Source: Candidatus Woesebacteria bacterium GW2011_GWA1_44_23 | GTDB taxonomy: Bacteria > Patescibacteriota > Microgenomatia > UBA8517 | Assembly (NCBI GenBank): GCA_001001045.1 | Contig: LCIL01000002.1 | Location: 9,127 to 73,126 of the forward strand | Length of the DNA stretch: 64,000 nucleotides | Direction: 5' to 3' | Shown: one piece after another, positions 18-11,254 of the stretch | How positions within the stretch are numbered: position 1 is the first letter of the stretch | Layout: every line of letters begins with the position of its first letter | The notes under the pieces: generated by a model | Databases searched by the model: none | Seen by the model: only the letters and a program-made list of their open reading frames with translations | Told to the model about the DNA's origin: nothing | Made by a program: the position numbers and the translations under genes

Positions 18-1712
18 TTATTGCAGAGTTTCAACTTTTGTTACCCTTATTATTTCTTCGATTGTTGTCATCCCCGAGGCAATTTTCTCAAGTCCGTCAT
101 CAAGCATTGTTTTCATCCCCTCTTTTATCGCTGCCTGAGCGATCACATCAGAGTCAACCCGCTCCGAAATTAGTTTCCTGATTCCCTTTGTTATCTCCAA
201 CACTTCAAAAAGCCCGACACGGCCAAGGTACCCGGTTTGTCTACAAATTTTACACCCTTTTCCTTTATGAATGGCAACTTCGTCCTTGCTGCCAAAGTAC
301 TTTTGAACGAGCAATTCCGGAAAATGCTTACTAAGTTCGGTAACCGGTATTCTTTCTTCGACTTTACAGGCTGAACAAATCTGTCTGACAAGCCGTTGGG
401 CAATTATTATATTTACCGTTGAGGCCACTAAAAATGGCTCGACCTTCATATCGGTCAAACGCGGGATTGCCGTTGCCGCATCATTTGTGTGAAGAGTTGA
501 CAATACCAGATGCCCGGTAAGGGCAGCGTTAACCGCGATACCTGCGGTTTCACTGTCTCTGATTTCTCCAACAAATATGACGTTCGGATCTTGTCTCAAA
601 ATCGAGCGCAGCCCGTTGGCGAATGTCAAATTAGTCTTGGCATTCACCTGAACCTGATTTGCTCCCTGAATTCTATACTCTACCGGGTCCTCAATAGTCA
701 TGATATTTTTCTCTCGGGTGTTTAAAATTTTCAGGATTGCATAAATTGAGGTAGTTTTACCGCTTCCGGTTGGGCCAGTAGAAAGGATCATTCCGTAAGT
801 TTTATTAAATGCTTTGGTTACTTTTTGCAAATCAGCCGGGTTCATGCCCAGGTCACTTAATGTGTATTCCCTGGCGTGTCCCGAAAGTAGCCGCAAAACC
901 GCTTTTTCGCCTTCGGTAATCGGAATTATCGAAACACGGATGTCCAAATTTTCCTCTTCCAATTTTTCCGTCATTTTCCCGTCCTGCGCGCTTAAGTGCT
1001 CATCAGTCCTGAGATTTGATAAAACTTTAATTCTACTGATTATCCGCTCGTGAATCTCGCGAGGAACCCGAAGCACATCCTGTAAAACTCCGTCAATGCG
1101 AAACCGGATCAGGGAAGTTTTTTCTTCCGGTTCTATATGGATATCGCTGGCTCTATCCTGATAGGCGGCATTGATCAGGACGTCAACCACTTTGATTATC
1201 GGCAAATCCCCTTGATAAAGTGTTGCCTGTTTAACGTATTCTTTCAAAAGTTCATCAATTGTTTTTTGGAGTGCTTTTTTATAAAGCTGGATAGTCCCTT
1301 CAACATCGCTGGCACTGGCGTAGTAAGGGGTTACCTTCATCCCGGTTTTTTTGGAAACCAGAGCCAGAATAGTCTGGTTTGAAGGATCGTTTAGGGCTAC
1401 CTTTACTCCGCTTCCGTCTTTTGCAAAAACAATAGCCTTTTGTTTTCTGGCTACTTTCTCGGGAATTATATGAGCAACGCTCTCAGGGATAGAAACTTTG
1501 GAAAGAGATATGACTGGGACTTTGTAATAATCAGCAATAACGGTCGAAATTTGATCTTCGGTAATTACACCGCTTTCAACAAGGGATGCCAAAAGACTTG
1601 GAGATTTGGTACTTGCCGCATAATTCTCAGCTTTGGCAATCGTACTTTCATCAAGTAAAAGCAATCCACTTTTTTTGACCAAACCAATTATCTGACTTTC
1701 AGTCAGGGGCAT
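18..1712 (-). CDS. pilB: Type II/IV secretion ATPase (PilB/GspE family), type IV pilus assembly ATPase
   Basis: N-terminal T2SSE_N domain; Walker A GPTGSGKTT; C-terminal tetracysteine CSAC...CKIC; 564 aa. Confidence 0.9.
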   Translation of the reverse strand: MPLTESQIIGLVKKSGLLLLDESTIAKAENYAASTKSPSLLASLVESGVITEDQISTVIADYYKVPVISLSKVSIPESVAHIIPEKVARKQKAIVFAKDGSGVKVALNDPSNQTILALVSKKTGMKVTPYYASASDVEGTIQLYKKALQKTIDELLKEYVKQATLYQGDLPIIKVVDVLINAAYQDRASDIHIEPEEKTSLIRFRIDGVLQDVLRVPREIHERIISRIKVLSNLRTDEHLSAQDGKMTEKLEEENLDIRVSIIPITEGEKAVLRLLSGHAREYTLSDLGMNPADLQKVTKAFNKTYGMILSTGPTGSGKTTSIYAILKILNTREKNIMTIEDPVEYRIQGANQVQVNAKTNLTFANGLRSILRQDPNVIFVGEIRDSETAGIAVNAALTGHLVLSTLHTNDAATAIPRLTDMKVEPFLVASTVNIIIAQRLVRQICSACKVEERIPVTELSKHFPELLVQKYFGSKDEVAIHKGKGCKICRQTGYLGRVGLFEVLEITKGIRKLISERVDSDVIAQAAIKEGMKTMLDDGLEKIASGMTTIEEIIRVTKVETLQ

Positions 1713-1784
1713 ATTTCATTGTAACATCAAAAAGAAGATCGGTTCATCCACCACTTCGTCTCATTCGTCTATTTCCAAGGGTCC

Positions 1785-2507
1785 TCAAGGTCCAATGTAC
1801 CACTCAAATCCTGAAATATTTTTTCTGCCCGAGAGAAAATCCGCCAACTCCGGATGTCCATTCAGTCTGGAATTTTGCCTCCCGTCATTAATATTGATAT
1901 AGACCGGTGTCGAGGCGGATCCCAAATAATATACGGAGGGGCCAATTTTAGGCAGATTGAAGCCCGAATATGGTCCGTTTAATATCGCAGCAACTCTGTC
2001 GTCAATTATTGCTACAGACGTATATTGCCTCATTGTGTCAACTATCCCCATGTAGGCTTTGATTAATCCGATTGCTATTCTGTTGTCTTTTCTATGACTC
2101 ATCGAATTTGCAAACTGAGACAATTCGTATGAGGCGCCCAATACGTGCTGCTTCCATGCTCCGTCAATCAATATTTTCGGTTCATTATTAATAGGTAGTC
2201 CTATACAATTCGGGATATTAGGAATTAAACGGAGGGATCCAACAACATCACATCCAATTTTTGCCACCAACGGAATGGAATACTGTTCATATTCATCAAC
2301 ATAAAGACCCTGCTCATTCAAATCTGTGGGCAAAATGTAGCTTATTTTGGGATCAAGGTATCTTTCAGTAACAACCTTTAGTCTTCCTTCCTTGTCTTGT
2401 TCCGTCTTGGCAATCCCCATTGAAATAAAGTTAGGATCCAAACACTCCTTCACACCAAATAGATTCACTAATCTGTCTGGTTCAGCTTCTTTTTCAATTA
2501 GATACAT
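1785..2507 (-). CDS. Hypothetical protein, operonic partner of the upstream E1-like protein
   Basis: 240-aa ORF 3 bp downstream of the E1-like gene on the same strand. No motif recognised (no HPN/E2, JAMM or YcaO signature). Confidence 0.5.
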   Translation of the reverse strand: MYLIEKEAEPDRLVNLFGVKECLDPNFISMGIAKTEQDKEGRLKVVTERYLDPKISYILPTDLNEQGLYVDEYEQYSIPLVAKIGCDVVGSLRLIPNIPNCIGLPINNEPKILIDGAWKQHVLGASYELSQFANSMSHRKDNRIAIGLIKAYMGIVDTMRQYTSVAIIDDRVAAILNGPYSGFNLPKIGPSVYYLGSASTPVYININDGRQNSRLNGHPELADFLSGRKNISGFEWYIGP

Positions 2508-2510
2508 ATT

Positions 2511-3422
2511 TTATGCGCTAACCATTTCTGTTAAGTATATTCTAATGGGTTTTGGGGATGTTTTCACAGGATTTCCCAAAATTATTTCTTTGACAGCCAA
2601 GGCCTGGGCTGTACCCAAAAGTTGACTTGCAATATCCGACTGGGCAATGTGTTCAATTTGTCCATTTAAAATGTTCTGAATCATATTTATGGTTCTGATG
2701 TCATGGGGCAGCGCCTTAAAAACATCATTGATATTGGCTTCTGAAGCAAAAAAGCTATCTCCGTAAAAGCTTAAGGCATCATCCTTGGTAGCAAATGTGC
2801 ATTCTTGTTTCCCTATTATAAACTGAGCCGCAATAGCAAGAGGATTAAAATTATCAAAATCTTCCGATGTGATATCTGGCGGTAACCCAAGAAATTGTGT
2901 ATAGGATGTTATGTCTTTTTCGTGGTAATTGAAAACGTACATTATAATATTGTCACCGAGATCGAGACCTGTGACTAAAGGTTTGCGGTGTTTCTCGCAC
3001 GCCTGGTGAAGCGCGAAAGTAATTTGGGGCTGCGAGATATCAACCATTTCGATAACCACATCTGAGTCGATAACAAGCCGGTCGACATTCCCAAGAGTTA
3101 TCCCCTCTTCGACCTTGCTGAGGTTCACCTCCGGATTTATATTTTTTACAATAGACCCCAAGGCGTAAATCTTTGCCGTTCCTTCCTGAGCATCAGCGAA
3201 GAGGTACGGAGGGCGTCCGATATTACGCCACTCTACCTTGTCCGGATCTGCCAAAGTGATTTTGCCGAAATTCTTTGTCCCTACTCCAATACGGGCAAGG
3301 TGAAGAGCAACGGGGCCACCCGCACCGCATCCGGCAATCAAAATTCGGGATTGCTGCAATTTGGTGAGCTCCACATCCTCAATCAATCCCTCAAAGTTTT
3401 TGTATCTTTCTATCTCAGTCAT
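2511..3422 (-). CDS. ThiF/MoeB/HesA (E1-like) family adenylyltransferase-fold protein with ~150-aa C-terminal extension
   Basis: Rossmann motif ILIAGCGAGGPVALHLARIGVG followed by LADPDKVEWRNIGR, as in E1-like enzymes. Confidence 0.75.
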   Translation of the reverse strand: MTEIERYKNFEGLIEDVELTKLQQSRILIAGCGAGGPVALHLARIGVGTKNFGKITLADPDKVEWRNIGRPPYLFADAQEGTAKIYALGSIVKNINPEVNLSKVEEGITLGNVDRLVIDSDVVIEMVDISQPQITFALHQACEKHRKPLVTGLDLGDNIIMYVFNYHEKDITSYTQFLGLPPDITSEDFDNFNPLAIAAQFIIGKQECTFATKDDALSFYGDSFFASEANINDVFKALPHDIRTINMIQNILNGQIEHIAQSDIASQLLGTAQALAVKEIILGNPVKTSPKPIRIYLTEMVSA

Positions 3423-3463
3423 TTTCTTTCTCGGCTGGTGCCATTATAATTGAATGGTAAGAA

Positions 3464-4441
3464 ATGTACTACAAATACCTGCTCATTCTCGTTTTTATAC
3501 TTAATGTTCTACTTGGCATATTTGTACTACTTCGCGACCACAAAAATCAAATCAACGTATCTTTTTCTTTATTTGTACTAAGTGTCGCAGGTTGGCTATC
3601 TATAAATTTTTTGTCTAATCAATTTACGGACTATCCACGAGCATTCATATTCAACAAGTTGATTTTTTTGGAATCTCCCTATATTAGCTTTGCTTTAATT
3701 TATTTCTCCCTCGTATTTCCCTATTCGTCCTTTGACATAAAGATCAAGCACCTAATTCTGCTAATTATCCCCGTATTTATTTCCAATATATTCACCATGC
3801 TCAATCTGACAATAACTGGGGTTAATGTTGTGCCCGGGGGGGTTACGGAAGTTACATTCGGTCCCGCAGTTGCGATTTGGGGATTTCAATTTGTTGCGTA
3901 TATACTGGTTTCTCTATTCCTCCTCGGGAAAAAATATACTATAACAAAAGGCCATCAGCACACTCAAATGCAGTATGTTTTTTTGGGAATTGCCCTTTTG
4001 GCCATTTTAGGAACTGTTACCAACTTTGCCATTCCCCTTCTTTACAATAATTTCGACGCCAGCAACTATGGACCCTTCTTGAGCTTATTTGTTCTCGGAT
4101 TTACAGCTTATGCCATTTTGAAACATAATCTGTTACATATTAAGGTCATAGCAACAGAAGCGGTGGTTGTATTGCTTCTGATAATCCTATTCACAAAACT
4201 TTTTATCTACCAATCTACAGGAGAGCTGATCCTGGATACTATAATTATGGGTCTGGTGTCCATCTTTGGAGCGCTCCTTATAAAAAGTGTTTTGGAGGAG
4301 ATTAAACAAAAGGAAAATCTGGCTTCGTTGAATATTAAACTCCAGGAAATGGATGATCAAAAAGACGAGTTTATTTCAATGGCTTCCCATGAATTAAGGA
4401 AAATATTGACGTTGCTGTTTCCTCTAATGAGCATGCCATAA
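3464..4441 (+). CDS. Sensor histidine kinase, N-terminal fragment (multi-TM sensor plus HisKA H-box); interrupted by frameshift
   Basis: About 7 hydrophobic segments, then an H-box ASHELR. The ORF stops 6 codons after a noncanonical continuation; the downstream frame carries the rest of the HisKA helix. Confidence 0.7.
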   Translation: MYYKYLLILVFILNVLLGIFVLLRDHKNQINVSFSLFVLSVAGWLSINFLSNQFTDYPRAFIFNKLIFLESPYISFALIYFSLVFPYSSFDIKIKHLILLIIPVFISNIFTMLNLTITGVNVVPGGVTEVTFGPAVAIWGFQFVAYILVSLFLLGKKYTITKGHQHTQMQYVFLGIALLAILGTVTNFAIPLLYNNFDASNYGPFLSLFVLGFTAYAILKHNLLHIKVIATEAVVVLLLIILFTKLFIYQSTGELILDTIIMGLVSIFGALLIKSVLEEIKQKENLASLNIKLQEMDDQKDEFISMASHELRKILTLLFPLMSMP

Positions 4442-4455
4442 ACCTTGTTAATGAC

Positions 4456-4980
4456 ATGCTTGATGTCTCAAGAATTGAAATGGGGCGAATAAAAGTGGAT
4501 TTAGAAAAAATCGATCTTGTCCAAATAGCCAGAGAAATCTATGAGGATTATCTCCTGCAAGCCAAGGACGAAAATATAAACCTGGTCAGTCATGGTATTG
4601 AAAAGAACAAAAAGGTTATCGTAAATGCCGATAAGGAAAGACTTGTTCAGGTATTTTCCAATCTAATCGGAAACGCACTTAAATTCACACCCAAGGGAGG
4701 GCAAATAACTATAACTCTTAAAACCGACGAAAAAGATGCCGAAGTCACAGTTCAGGACACAGGAATCGGCATAAAAGAAAATGATATACCTAAACTTTTT
4801 GCAAAGTTCGTACGACTCAACGATTCACATATTTCTGTTCCCAGCACGATGGGTACAGGTCTGGGTCTTTATATTAGTAAAAAACTGTTAGCGCTTTTTG
4901 GAGGAAAAATTTGGGTAGAAAGTAAATATGGGAAAGGTTCTAAATTCATCTTTACCTTACCCGCAATTGAGGCGTCATAG
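4456..4980 (+). CDS. Sensor histidine kinase, C-terminal fragment (HATPase_c); same gene as 3464..4441 in another frame
   Basis: LVNDMLDVSRIE (end of HisKA), N-box NLIGNALKFT, G1 DTGIGI, G2 GTGLGL. Confidence 0.7.
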   Translation: MLDVSRIEMGRIKVDLEKIDLVQIAREIYEDYLLQAKDENINLVSHGIEKNKKVIVNADKERLVQVFSNLIGNALKFTPKGGQITITLKTDEKDAEVTVQDTGIGIKENDIPKLFAKFVRLNDSHISVPSTMGTGLGLYISKKLLALFGGKIWVESKYGKGSKFIFTLPAIEAS

Positions 4981-4992
4981 TATAATTGAGAA

Positions 4993-5364
4993 ATGGCAAA
5001 GATCTTGATCGTCGAGGACGATAAAGGCACACGCGATATATACTCGTCGGTTCTCGGGCAAGCGGGATATGAAGTTGATGTTGCCGAGAACGGAGAAGCG
5101 GGTTTAGCGAAAGCTAAAGAGGGTGGCTATGACTTAATTCTTTTGGACGTGATGCTTCCTAAAATGGATGGTATAGCCCTTCTTGGCGAGCTCAAAAAGA
5201 CTCCTCCCAAAGCAGGAAACAAAAATATATTTCTCTTGACAAACTTGTCTCATGACCCGATTCTCAAAGAGGCTATAAGTCTTGGTGCTAGGGACGTAAT
5301 CCTTAAAACTGACATTAACCCGGGAAAGCTGACCGAAAAAGTTAAGAAAATATTAGCAGCCTGA
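4993..5364 (+). CDS. Response regulator, stand-alone receiver (CheY-like) domain
   Basis: ILIVEDD...DLILLDVMLPKMDG phospho-acceptor Asp context; 123 aa; no output domain. Confidence 0.85.
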   Translation: MAKILIVEDDKGTRDIYSSVLGQAGYEVDVAENGEAGLAKAKEGGYDLILLDVMLPKMDGIALLGELKKTPPKAGNKNIFLLTNLSHDPILKEAISLGARDVILKTDINPGKLTEKVKKILAA

Positions 5365-7251: not shown

Positions 7252-7512
7252 CTAAACTGCAGCAGGTGGAGTGCCGGTAGGCGGCATTCCGGTTCCTGCA
7301 TCTCCTGTTCCCTCAGCCGGCACAACGGGCGGGGCTACTGGCTGCTCTTCAGGAGCCTGCTGAGGCTCGGGGATAGGAGTCATTGTCGGTTCTTCTGGTA
7401 CCTCTACCGGTTCTACCGGAGGGGTGGTAACTGGTGCCGGAGGTGTCGGTACACCCACATTGGAATCGGCTACCGGGACAGTTGGGTTGACTGGGTTTTG
7501 TGTTGGATCCAT
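7252..7512 (-). CDS. Low-complexity Pro/Thr/Val/Glu-rich small protein, translationally coupled to trxA
   Basis: TAATG stop/start overlap with trxA; 86 aa; locally GC-rich; may be spurious or a linker-like secreted peptide. Confidence 0.3.
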   Translation of the reverse strand: MDPTQNPVNPTVPVADSNVGVPTPPAPVTTPPVEPVEVPEEPTMTPIPEPQQAPEEQPVAPPVVPAEGTGDAGTGMPPTGTPPAAV

Positions 7513-9925: not shown

Positions 9926-10185
9926 CTTTTTTTAAGTACCTGCATTACCTCCCCTATTGCCTCTTTGCTGTCTCCTTTTTTAATCGAATCGGAAACGCAA
10001 GTTTCCAGATGATTTTTCAAGACTTCATTATCTGCTTTTTTTAACGCGGCCTGAACCGCTAAAGATTGATGTACGATGTCTATGCAGTATTCGCCACTTC
10101 CAAGCATTGATATCACTTTATCCAAATGGCCTCTGGCTATTTGGTATCTATGTAGAATACCTTTTTTGGTATTGTTATTAGGCAT
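9922..10185 (-). CDS. csoR: CsoR/RcnR-family metal-sensing repressor
   Basis: DUF156-like helical protein with the Cys...His...Cys ligand pattern (YCIDIVHQ...ETC); overlaps copA start. Start placed at the internal ATG at 10185; the ORF track runs to 10251. Confidence 0.7.
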   Translation of the reverse strand: MPNNNTKKGILHRYQIARGHLDKVISMLGSGEYCIDIVHQSLAVQAALKKADNEVLKNHLETCVSDSIKKGDSKEAIGEVMQVLKKR

Positions 10186-10197
10186 TTGCGTTTTGGT

Positions 10198-10214
10198 ATC
10201 CCCCCGGGGGGGAT
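10198..10214. promoter_or_regulatory. 17-bp G/C palindrome ATCCCCCC-G-GGGGGGAT, candidate CsoR operator
   Basis: Near-perfect inverted repeat in the csoR / membrane-protein divergent region, abutting a TTGACA -35 box. If csoR starts at 10251 it lies in coding sequence instead. Confidence 0.4.
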
Positions 10215-10242
10215 TGACAATAGTATAAATTAGCTTTATCCT
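10214..10242 (+). promoter_or_regulatory. Candidate sigma70-like promoter TTGACA-17-TATCCT for the + strand copper operon
   Basis: TTGACA at 10214-10219, 17-nt spacer, TATCCT at 10237-10242, ATG at 10253 (near-leaderless). Confidence 0.35.
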
Positions 10243-10252
10243 AAATGTCAAG

Positions 10253-11254
10253 ATGGCTAACTACTGGCTAGCATTTATCACAGGACTTACGACCGGCGGA
10301 ATTTCCTGCTTTGCGGTTCAGGGAGGGCTTTTAACCTCCGCATTGGCAACAGAGGAAGAAATAAAAATTTCAAAAAGCCTTAGAGCCCGCGCTCTGGTTG
10401 CCTTTTTGATTTCAAAATTAATTGCCTATACCCTACTTGGATTTGTTTTGGGATTTGTTGGAAAAGGCCTTATTGTCACACCCAAAGTCCAAGGATGGCT
10501 ACAAATACTAATAGGTGTTTTTATGCTTCTTACTGCGGCGAATCTTGCCAATCTTCACCCCTTTTTCCGACATTTCGTGATTACCCCCCCAAAATTTATA
10601 TTCAAAATTTTACGAAACCAAACAAGAGTAAAGTCGTTTTTTACTCCGATTTTCTTGGGAGCACTAACAATATTTATTCCCTGTGGAGTGACTCAGGCAA
10701 TGATGCTTTTAGCCGTTTCCGCTTCCAACCCTGCCGTCTCCGCGTCAATTCTTTTTGCCTTCATTTTAGGAACAATTCCGGTTTTCTTTGTGATCGGGAT
10801 GGCGGCTAACGAACTTCTCAAACGCAAGAGCCTCACAATTTTGGCGGCTTTGGTTGTAGCAATCTTGGGAATTATTTCCATAAATAGCGGCCAGGTACTA
10901 CGCGGGTCCGCTCACACGATTCAAAATTACTGGAAAGTCTCTTTCGCAACTGAAAGGCAGGGCAGACTCGCCCCGATTAACTCCGGAGTCCAGGAGGTTA
11001 CAATTGACGTCTTATCGCGTGGCTATAAGACAGATGTAACTACCCTCAAACTGGGGGTACCGGTAAAACTAACCCTCGTCACAAACGGCGTAACAAGTTG
11101 TGCAAGGGCTTTTACAATTCCTGACTACAATCTTTTTAAATTGCTTCCCCAGACCGGAACCGAAGTAATAGAATTTACCCCAGAAAAGACTGGGCTTCTG
11201 ATTTTTACTTGCAGTATGGGTATGTACAGCGGATCGTTTAACGTAATTGAATAA
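10253..11254 (+). CDS. Polytopic membrane protein with conserved intramembrane Cys pair and C-terminal cupredoxin-like/Met-rich domain; putative copper handling
   Basis: TM helices with GGISCFAVQGG and IFIPCGVTQ; soluble C-terminal domain ending FTCSMGMYSG; sits in the csoR-copA-copZ cluster. Confidence 0.5.
   Translation: MANYWLAFITGLTTGGISCFAVQGGLLTSALATEEEIKISKSLRARALVAFLISKLIAYTLLGFVLGFVGKGLIVTPKVQGWLQILIGVFMLLTAANLANLHPFFRHFVITPPKFIFKILRNQTRVKSFFTPIFLGALTIFIPCGVTQAMMLLAVSASNPAVSASILFAFILGTIPVFFVIGMAANELLKRKSLTILAALVVAILGIISINSGQVLRGSAHTIQNYWKVSFATERQGRLAPINSGVQEVTIDVLSRGYKTDVTTLKLGVPVKLTLVTNGVTSCARAFTIPDYNLFKLLPQTGTEVIEFTPEKTGLLIFTCSMGMYSGSFNVIE

Follow-up and report, generated by a model that had tools for sequence, protein, structure and literature searches.

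Several bacterial pathways unite an acyltransferase with an adenylating enzyme of the ThiF type to make oxazolones. These are OxzA/OxzB of Pseudoalteromonas rubra (bioRxiv 10.1101/2020.06.11.147165) and TyzA/TyzB/TyzC (PMC10404671) and TrzA/TrzS (PMC12856293) of Mycobacterium tuberculosis and its relatives. The acyltransferase N-acylates tyrosine, phenylalanine, or tryptophan from acyl-CoA (PMC10404671, PMC12856293, bioRxiv 10.1101/2020.06.11.147165), the ThiF part cyclizes the N-acyl amino acid with ATP, and a nitroreductase-type flavoenzyme desaturates the ring with O2. Saturated oxazolones are labile (PMC12856293); a saturated product is chemically feasible because the R540A variant of TrzS accumulates the cyclized, nonoxidized intermediate. 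Characterized tyrazolones and tryptazolones remain mostly with the cells and have no known role (PMC10404671, PMC12856293). The stieleriacine genes are likewise predicted to encode an acyltransferase and a ThiF-type protein (PMC12479983). Related chemistry includes the ThiF-catalyzed thiolactone formation by GrcB and the t6A-to-ct6A cyclodehydratase TcdA/CsdL, also of the ThiF fold, which cyclizes an N-acylated (carbamoylated) amino acid moiety via an adenylate. Going by reviews, OxzB is the only validated small-molecule ThiF outside peptides and tRNA.

In NCBIfam, model PRK14852 describes a FeeM-ThiF-nitroreductase triple fusion, for example DVU_RS16045 on the Desulfovibrio vulgaris plasmid pDV, which is located in a PEP-CTERM/exosortase surface-polysaccharide locus. 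PRK14851 corresponds to the ThiF-nitroreductase portion of this fusion, and the ThiF of this clade in its stand-alone form is described by PRK08223; our literature search found nothing on either of these two models.

Synthase genes beside a polytopic membrane histidine kinase are known from the CqsA/CqsS, LuxM/LuxN, and AgrBD/AgrC quorum-sensing systems. Among CPR bacteria, Bernard et al. (2020) listed 18 pairs of a "LuxI homologue next to a sensory kinase" in other phyla than the one studied here, and several of these kinases matched the CqsS sensor model (PMC7567580). The pairs were read as acyl-homoserine lactone (AHL) systems, with no mention of ThiF (PMC7567580). The genome of GW2011_GWA1_44_23 is not among them, nor do the accessions given there match the protein described below.

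Results

We analyzed a 64,000-nucleotide stretch of DNA from Candidatus Woesebacteria bacterium GW2011_GWA1_44_23 (the window). A gene for a ThiF/E1-like protein is followed after 3 bp by that of its partner, both on the minus strand. The pair has pilB 72 bp downstream, and a divergently transcribed two-component system begins 41 bp upstream of the ThiF gene (Table 1). A sequence-only reading of this DNA had reported both ORFs, which are real and located where it placed them, and had rightly considered a position between pilB and a two-component system to be no typical cofactor-biosynthesis context. It had, however, treated the two-component system as mere context, while the seven-transmembrane (7TM) kinase of this system proved to be the third conserved component. 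In GenBank, an identical ThiF protein from Microgenomates bacterium GW2011_GWC1_43_13 is annotated as "MoeB," and the 90%-identity cluster of the partner includes entries deposited as hypothetical proteins from Ca. Woesebacteria.

Table 1. Positions of the cassette genes and of the region between them in the window.
Feature	Position	Strand	Remarks
ThiF/E1-like ATP-dependent carboxylate-adenylating enzyme, putative cyclase of the acyltransferase product, 303 aa	2511..3422	-	
FeeM/LuxI-fold N-acyltransferase, putative N-acyl amino acid synthase, 240 aa	1785..2507	-	
Divergent intergenic region, 41 bp, between ThiF operon and kinase gene, with shared ATTATAAT box	3423..3463	.	
HisKA_7TM sensor histidine kinase, split into ORFs 3464..4441 and 4456..4980	3464..4980	+	
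Stand-alone receiver-domain response regulator, 123 aa, without output domain	4993..5364	+	Pfam Response_reg E = 3.4e-24, sole domain

The Pfam ThiF domain (PF00899) covers only residues 14 to 167 of the 303-aa protein (E = 9.9e-25), and the traits of this superfamily, namely, the Gly-rich loop, the Arg finger, and the ATP/Mg-binding Lys and Asp, are all present. In family alignments, G31, G33, G35, R44, D59, N67, R70, K84, and D128 are invariant and align with the ATP/Mg residues G40-G43, D62, N70, R73, K86, and D130 of Escherichia coli MoeB. The Pfam match and the retention of all adenylation residues bear out the earlier description of an E1/ThiF-fold adenylating enzyme. The family alignments show no conserved Cys, and the aligned CPR proteins have neither of the two CxxC zinc motifs of MoeB/ThiF. 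What had been called a noncanonical C-terminal half of about 150 aa is a helical insertion at about residues 174 to 255, which replaces the Cys/Zn cross-over segment; after it come the canonical helix and strand of the C terminus.

The best NCBIfam match of the window protein was the unnamed model NF006077/PRK08223, with 80.8 bits against a cutoff of 266, next to 80.3 bits for ThiF. All equivalogs (ThiF, MoeB, TcdA, and SAMP-E1) scored far below their cutoffs, which speaks against the TcdA-like enzyme or MoeB considered in the sequence-only reading. An assignment as MoeB/ThiF sulfur-carrier adenylyltransferase was rejected on the scores for TIGR02356 (80 against 275) and TIGR02355 (55 against 377) and on the lack of both CxxC motifs and of a small GG-ending ORF. 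TcdA/CsdL tRNA ct6A synthase was rejected because the cutoff of NF011696 was not passed and the protein did not cluster with TcdA. The same holds for an E1 of the Bil BilD/CBASS Cap2 type, as there is no E2, JAB, Ubl, or conserved Cys, and the PADLOC E1-E2 matches reach at most 48 bits and cover only the Rossmann part (residues ~14-195). In the PDB, the window ThiF resembles the E1 Rossmann domains of UBA6, ThiF, MoeB, and TcdA. The best structural match is AclA from Tenacibaculum discolor (PDB 9EGB/9EGC/9EGD; 20% identity), for which a literature search found no function or substrate.

In a neighbor-joining tree of ThiF domains, the CPR proteins formed a clade with 78% support and 22 to 25% identity to every reference, and the tree did not resolve the place of this clade among the references. 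Several features are common to the CPR ThiFs and those linked to acyltransferases or desaturases but are not found in MoeB, ThiF, or TcdA: the ADPD and EG(I/V)T..NV motifs, two residues inserted after the Mg-binding Asp, FLGLP..T.ED at the site of the first CxxC of MoeB, and an LP...GEIE insertion. In this comparison, the stand-ins for TyzB, OxzB, and TrzS were the FeeM-ThiF-nitroreductase fusion of D. vulgaris, the ThiF of a Rhodococcus plasmid, and the protein P0176. When the CPR alignment (A3, fusion protein left out) was compared by hhalign, it scored 222 against the acyltransferase-linked group and 121 against MoeB/ThiF, with reference alignments that were small and of unequal depth. The shared indels and motifs, together with these scores, favor a place of the CPR ThiF in the acyltransferase/desaturase-linked clade (NF006077/NF011424/NF011425; Rv1355c family), whereas the NF006077 score far below the cutoff and the tree do not bear this out, so that it is a candidate member. 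The nearest ThiFs outside the family, those of L023, of the Rhodococcus plasmid, and of the D. vulgaris fusion, are also acyltransferase linked.

The 240-aa partner had been described as lacking any recognizable motif. Searched alone, it indeed gave only faint matches, to FeeM in Pfam (E = 0.2) and, as the best in NCBIfam, to an exosortase-associated acyltransferase (E = 0.0028); sequence searches of the PDB and of PADLOC returned no match, and there was none to Pfam Autoind_synth (PF00765). However, an AlphaFold2 model based on the small family around it is of high confidence (pLDDT 85.5, pTM 0.84) and shows an N-acyltransferase fold of the FeeM/LuxI type. Its closest structures include FeeM (2G0B) and BjaI (5W8C), which are also the closest to TyzA. 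The protein has the three-layer α/β/α fold and the conserved Glu-x-Ser motif of LuxI and FeeM, and it is none of the E2, Ubl, JAB, YcaO, or nitroreductase folds for which the sequence-only reading had proposed to look. The family is compact, with 33 clusters below E = 1e-30 and 160 below 1e-3 in a profile search of 1.84 billion representatives. Sampled distant members match FeeM, Acetyltransf_5, and Autoind_synth, with the best scores for FeeM/Acetyltransf_5.

Profile-profile comparison of the partner with such distant FeeM/Autoind_synth-type proteins gave a probability of 99.9% (E = 4.7e-35), and the motifs line up: D-x-Y-E with DEYD, vGSxRLI, E128-L-S-Q-F-A with E-V-S-R-L-A, and YLGSxSTP with YxGSxxxP. 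On the strength of this match and these motifs, the partner is assigned as a diverged N-acyl amino acid synthase or LuxI-type acyltransferase with putative substrates. Relative to FeeM and further N-acyl amino acid synthases (PF21926, PF13444), it has diverged below the Pfam cutoffs, is extended at its N and C termini (an invariant GFEWY tail forms part of the extensions), and has Gln in place of the Arg of the ESR motif. Similarity between the acyltransferase domain of the D. vulgaris fusion and the CPR partner family was not significant by hhalign (probability 16%).

We collected 21 nonidentical loci by way of either protein, of GTDB genomes, and of metagenomes; the taxa named in their records are Microgenomates/Woesebacteria, Saccharibacteria, and Dojkabacteria. 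The ThiF gene directly precedes the acyltransferase gene in all 21. In one of them the two are naturally fused: P0056 (543 aa) combines ThiF (residues 8-223) with FeeM (341-480; 29.9 bits at a Pfam cutoff of 27), its C-terminal part matches the partner profile (E = 6e-24), and its gene is followed by those of a HisKA_7TM kinase and a regulator. Synteny across related genomes, which the sequence-only reading had named as a check, is thus observed throughout. The refutation that it had set out, a ThiF protein clustering with TcdA or MoeB beside a partner not co-conserved with it, does not hold, since each of the loci examined has the partner co-conserved.

No nitroreductase (PF00881) or Acg-like match was found within 4 to 8 kb in any related locus, and the families listed for the related neighborhoods include no E2, JAB, or Ubl. 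Near the pair in the window there is no Ubl, E2, or JAB gene and no GG-ending small ORF of the ThiS/MoaD type, in agreement with the earlier observation that such a carrier and JAB are missing. Promoter and terminator signals were not enriched over shuffled sequences.

Wherever the sequence extends far enough (20 of 20 loci), the pair has an orthologous HisKA_7TM histidine kinase as its direct neighbor. L019, a 1.5-kb contig, was left out of this count, and L005 and L025 show only the N terminus of the kinase at the contig edge. In the window, L001, L005, L007, L011, and L020, the kinase gene (alone or accompanied by a regulator) is located upstream of ThiF in divergent orientation; in L006, L008, L010, L012-L018, L021, L022, L024, and L025, it is co-directional with the ThiF and acyltransferase genes. 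The surroundings vary, with at least eight kinds of flanks, including type IV pilus genes, glycosyltransferases, and bacA with a Trp repressor; Saccharibacteria and Dojkabacteria cassettes are flanked by rpsB-tsf and frr. A metagenome scan from the kinase side with a degenerate pattern returned at least one locus, again with the pair, and samples the kinase-side specificity thinly.

The intact kinase ortholog of L001 passes Pfam HisKA_7TM (PF16927), HisKA, and HATPase_c. The 7TM sensor domain is well conserved, with the invariant polar intramembrane residues N48, S51, N52, N64, Q170, Y171, T186, and N187. In the window, a 73-bp deletion between positions 4391 and 4392, just past the codon of the phospho-acceptor His, shifts the frame and splits the gene into two ORFs. 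This deletion could be an assembly error or mark a pseudogene; the L003 gene, 99.7% identical to the window copy, is intact. A regulator consisting of a bare receiver accompanies the kinase in the window, L001, L011, L008, L022, and L024 and is absent from the Saccharibacteria and Dojkabacteria loci. In the divergent intergenic region, L001 and L011 share the conserved motif TTCAATTATAAT, and the ATTATAAT box may serve the ThiF operon and the kinase gene jointly.

Comparison of the window strain with L001 revealed uneven divergence. The flanks are about 86 to 92% identical in 300-nt windows, and the stretch from about codon 30 of ThiF to the end of the partner gene is 56 to 89% identical in 75-nt windows and about 65 to 73% in 300-nt windows. 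The dN values of the enzyme pair are 0.145 and 0.176, as compared to 0.016 to 0.053 in the flanks; dS of the pair is raised too and saturated. L003 changes from window-like to L001-like sequence inside the ThiF gene, at about window positions 3250 to 3176, and represents either a recombinant or a chimeric assembly.

Among described chemistries, that of OxzAB, TyzACB, and TrzAS appears closest to what the CPR pair would catalyze. All of them place a FeeM/LuxI-fold N-acyl amino acid synthase beside a ThiF protein, or fused to it, without a Ubl. In contrast to these pathways, the CPR cassette has no nitroreductase-type flavin desaturase and is obligately linked to a 7TM histidine kinase. Its gene order (ThiF, then acyltransferase) is the reverse of oxzAB, and its ThiF carries an extra helical insert of ~40 aa and stays under the NF006077 cutoff. 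The hosts differ as well, the oxazolone pathways being those of Proteobacteria, Actinobacteria, and Planctomycetes. The CPR module is a desaturase-free variant of the acyltransferase-ThiF (oxazolone-type) pathway tied to a 7TM kinase, with predicted chemistry. Of the undescribed E1-dependent system proposed in the sequence-only reading, the co-conserved and previously unannotated partner stands, while the system is of the acyltransferase-ThiF small-molecule type and not of the E1-Ubl type.

Discussion

Because the pair always lies beside a seven-helix membrane kinase in CPR bacteria, it is most likely the maker of a small-molecule signal, with the kinase as its receptor. Our judgment is evenly balanced as to whether the cassette produces an ATP-cyclized N-acyl amino acid that the adjacent kinase would sense in an autoinducer-like manner. 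The 240-aa acyltransferase would N-acylate an amino acid or a similar amine-carboxylate, and the co-transcribed ThiF-type enzyme would adenylate the free carboxylate of this product with ATP. In the absence of a catalytic Cys, ring closure on the adenylate would be left to an internal nucleophile, as with the ThiF components OxzB, TyzB, and TrzS when N-acyl amino acids become oxazolones. Without a nitroreductase-type desaturase, a saturated oxazolone or some other N-acyl amino acid in cyclized or activated form would result. Attack of a side-chain nucleophile on the adenylate, similar to thiolactone formation by GrcB, could instead give a lactone or lactam. CPR bacteria are not generally known to synthesize fatty acids, which leaves the acyl donor unclear and counts against this chemistry. 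The missing desaturase of the characterized pathways, the lability of saturated oxazolones (PMC12856293), the low NF006077 score of the window ThiF, and the tree also weigh against it. The 7TM-sensor kinase, together with the CheY-like regulator where present, would be the receptor of the lipophilic product in an autoinducer-like circuit, often beside type IV pilus genes. The invariant polar residues within the membrane segments of the sensor and the independent report of LuxI-like genes beside CqsS-like kinases in other CPR phyla (PMC7567580) favor this reading. The folds, catalytic residues, gene fusion, and linkage of the three genes are observed, while substrates, ring chemistry, the relation of ligand to receptor, and output are predicted.

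As in CqsA/CqsS, LuxM/LuxN, and AgrBD/AgrC, a transmembrane bundle would bind a lipophilic ligand, and the synthase fold in the window is that of LuxI. In contrast to these systems, the synthase chemistry would involve a ThiF partner, the sensor is HisKA_7TM with a putative ligand, and the regulator is a bare receiver domain or missing. We regard it as a tentative possibility, rather doubtful at this point, that the cassette embodies an unrecognized autoinducer class with its receptor, in which the 7TM kinase would sense a ThiF-cyclized N-acyl amino acid within the membrane and govern the type IV pili of CPR episymbionts or their attachment to hosts. As the signal one would then expect a saturated oxazolone or a SAM-independent product of side-chain attack on the acyl-adenylate (lactone, thiolactone, or lactam).

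Several observations count against a signaling role. The regulator has no DNA-binding output, the window kinase is frameshifted, and no exporter is linked. In the two close strains, the kinase sensor domain has diverged far less than the enzyme pair. A signal and a receptor evolving together would not give such a pattern, which argues against the signal-receptor reading. Gene adjacency alone cannot separate a receptor of the product from a regulator of the operon, as it fits both alike. A lipid or envelope role under kinase control is a serious rival, although on balance we consider it unlikely. The product would be a membrane lipid of N-acyl amino acid type or a surface modification, and the 7TM kinase would sense the membrane state or an external cue and merely regulate the operon, perhaps with the pilus genes. 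The cell association of most tyrazolones and tryptazolones (PMC10404671, PMC12856293), the PEP-CTERM/exosortase setting of the D. vulgaris triple fusion, the exosortase-associated acyltransferase as best NCBIfam match of the partner, the sensor domain that does not co-diverge with the enzymes, and the shared divergent promoter are all in line with such a role. It leaves unexplained why one kinase family is kept through every rearrangement, including the regulator-less loci and the tsf-frr housekeeping loci, and no lipid-transport or envelope genes are co-conserved with the cassette.

The remaining explanations are less probable. A LuxI-type AHL synthase with its sensor kinase, as read by Bernard et al. 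(2020), would make ThiF accessory or unrelated. We find this improbable, as the relatives of the partner score best on FeeM/Acetyltransf_5 rather than Autoind_synth, which the window protein does not match, and as lactone formation from SAM has no use for a ThiF that is strictly conserved, coupled in translation, and sometimes fused. There is no LuxR near the pair, but a membrane kinase is adjacent. RiPP maturation, also raised in the sequence-only reading, is a shade more improbable still: ThiF would activate the C terminus of a precursor peptide, as do MccB, PaaA, and GrcB, the GNAT-like enzyme would acylate it, and the kinase would sense it in an Agr-like manner. The gaps of 3, 41, and 72 bp in the window are too small for a peptide gene, no small ORF upstream that could encode a precursor is conserved in other loci, and no protease, RRE, or transporter is linked to the pair. 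The module for Ubl conjugation or antiphage defense (Bil/CBASS Cap2 type) raised earlier, or else a sulfur-carrier, cofactor, or tRNA enzyme (MoeB, ThiF, TcdA), could draw on the PADLOC and PDB similarities of the Rossmann domain and on the GenBank name "MoeB." With no Ubl, E2, JAB, or catalytic Cys, PADLOC matches confined to the Rossmann part, and the defining features of MoeB, ThiF, and TcdA missing, we consider this very improbable.

CPR bacteria (Patescibacteria) account for a considerable part of bacterial diversity; they spend their lives attached to other microbes, with only a handful of regulatory systems. To our knowledge, none of them has been shown to possess a dedicated circuit for cell-cell signaling. 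A three-gene cassette present across Woesebacteria, Saccharibacteria, and Dojkabacteria, often near pilus genes for host contact, is a concrete and testable candidate for one, encoded by genes now annotated as "MoeB" and "hypothetical protein." The NCBIfam "hypothetical protein" models PRK08223, PRK14851, and PRK14852 are now recognizable as the acyltransferase/desaturase-linked ThiF clade. The cassette would extend small-molecule ThiF chemistry and suggests a possible signaling function for metabolites of the N-acyl oxazolone type, which have no known role in M. tuberculosis or marine bacteria. If it does represent a new class of autoinducer, oxazolone-type lipids would gain a physiological role, and the hyperdiverged enzyme alleles would be signal variants.

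Divergence of the enzyme pair

Comparison of the window with the related locus L001 revealed a local peak of divergence that is limited to the ThiF and acyltransferase genes. Within this peak, identity falls to 56-89% in 75-nt windows and to about 65-73% in 300-nt windows, as compared to about 86-92% in the flanking regions, and both dN and dS are elevated in the two genes. Despite the diverged enzyme pair, the kinase sensors of the two loci share 96% protein identity. At the sequence level, this pattern looks like allelic replacement or the persistence of old alleles. In a further related locus, L003 (JGI Ga0103680_10000784), we found a breakpoint inside ThiF, at about window position 3250-3176. 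The sequence before it, including the 5' part of ThiF, is about 100% window-like, while the rest of the contig beyond it is 100% L001-like. Either L003 is a natural recombinant whose enzyme cassette has been exchanged, or the metagenome assembly is chimeric.

The short region between the divergent ThiF and kinase genes carries an element, TTCAATTATAAT, which is conserved across the window, L001, and L011 (also a related locus). It is near-palindromic, resembles a -10 box, and could act for both directions of transcription.

Integrity of the kinase gene

Sequence comparison with L001, L003, and L011 showed that the window kinase gene lacks 73 bp at 4391/4392, immediately 3' of the codon for the phospho-acceptor histidine (cat, 4388-4390). 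The resulting frameshift leaves two ORFs of 325 and 174 amino acids in place of 529. Because the L003 kinase gene is 99.7% identical to the window copy and has an intact reading frame, the deletion is either a very recent pseudogenization or an assembly error. The kinase gene is likewise broken into two ORFs in L010 and L015, which brings the split genes to 3 of the ~20 loci.

Acyltransferase-linked ThiF proteins outside CPR

DVU_RS16045 of Desulfovibrio vulgaris Hildenborough, annotated only as "ThiF family adenylyltransferase," is a triple fusion of FeeM, ThiF, and nitroreductase/Acg-like parts, located within a PEP-CTERM/XrtA exopolysaccharide locus. It is an oxazolone-synthetase homologue with all parts joined in one protein. 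Its clade is modeled by NCBIfam PRK14852, PRK14851, and PRK08223, all three named "hypothetical protein." On a Rhodococcus qingshengii plasmid, an IS256 transposase insertion lies between the genes for a GNAT N-acyltransferase and a ThiF of the PRK08223 type, with no nitroreductase among the annotated genes nearby.

Genomic surroundings of the cassette

In four Saccharibacteria/Dojkabacteria loci (L012, L014, L016, and L018), the three-gene cassette is inserted into the conserved housekeeping cluster rpsB-tsf-frr-rseP, with tsf and frr as its neighbors, and no response regulator adjoins it. Other neighbors were found at single loci: a radical-SAM-like gene (CNLRCKYC motif) immediately downstream of the kinase in L006, not conserved elsewhere; an XRE-type regulator convergent with the acyltransferase gene in L005; and, in L024, a second HisKA_7TM protein without kinase domains, encoded 3 kb upstream of the gene for the ThiF-FeeM fusion. 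Elsewhere in the window, a proline-rich ORF had no match in a Pfam search; it is also called as a gene in related strains (83-86 amino acids; L001-L004).

Type IV pilus genes, among them pilB, pilT, pilC, and prepilin-like genes, flank the cassette in several loci of differing arrangement, and this recurrence hints at a functional link between the cassette and pili.

Coordinates of the features in the window and the comparison loci
Feature	Locus	Position	Strand	Remarks
ThiF/kinase intergenic region	window	3423..3463		~40 bp, divergent
ThiF/kinase intergenic region	L001	7042..7082
ThiF/kinase intergenic region	L011	4878..4915
Divergence peak	window	~1754..3325
Divergence peak	L001	7180..8760
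Kinase gene	window	3464..4980	+
Split kinase gene	L010	7755..9868
Split kinase gene	L015	3032..4877
Proline-rich ORF	window	7252..7512	-	86 aa, between thioredoxin and thioredoxin-reductase genes
Type IV pilus genes	window	18..1712
Type IV pilus genes	L001	8795..16006
Type IV pilus genes	L011	2..2859
Type IV pilus genes	L022	1..3694 and 10022..10621
Radical-SAM-like gene	L006	5186..6250
HTH_31 regulator	L005	2305..3093		262 aa
Second HisKA_7TM protein	L024	1767..3185		472 aa
N-acyltransferase and ThiF genes	L026	2840..5723		plasmid pN9T4-3
DVU_RS16045	L027	3945..6914		989 aa, pDV
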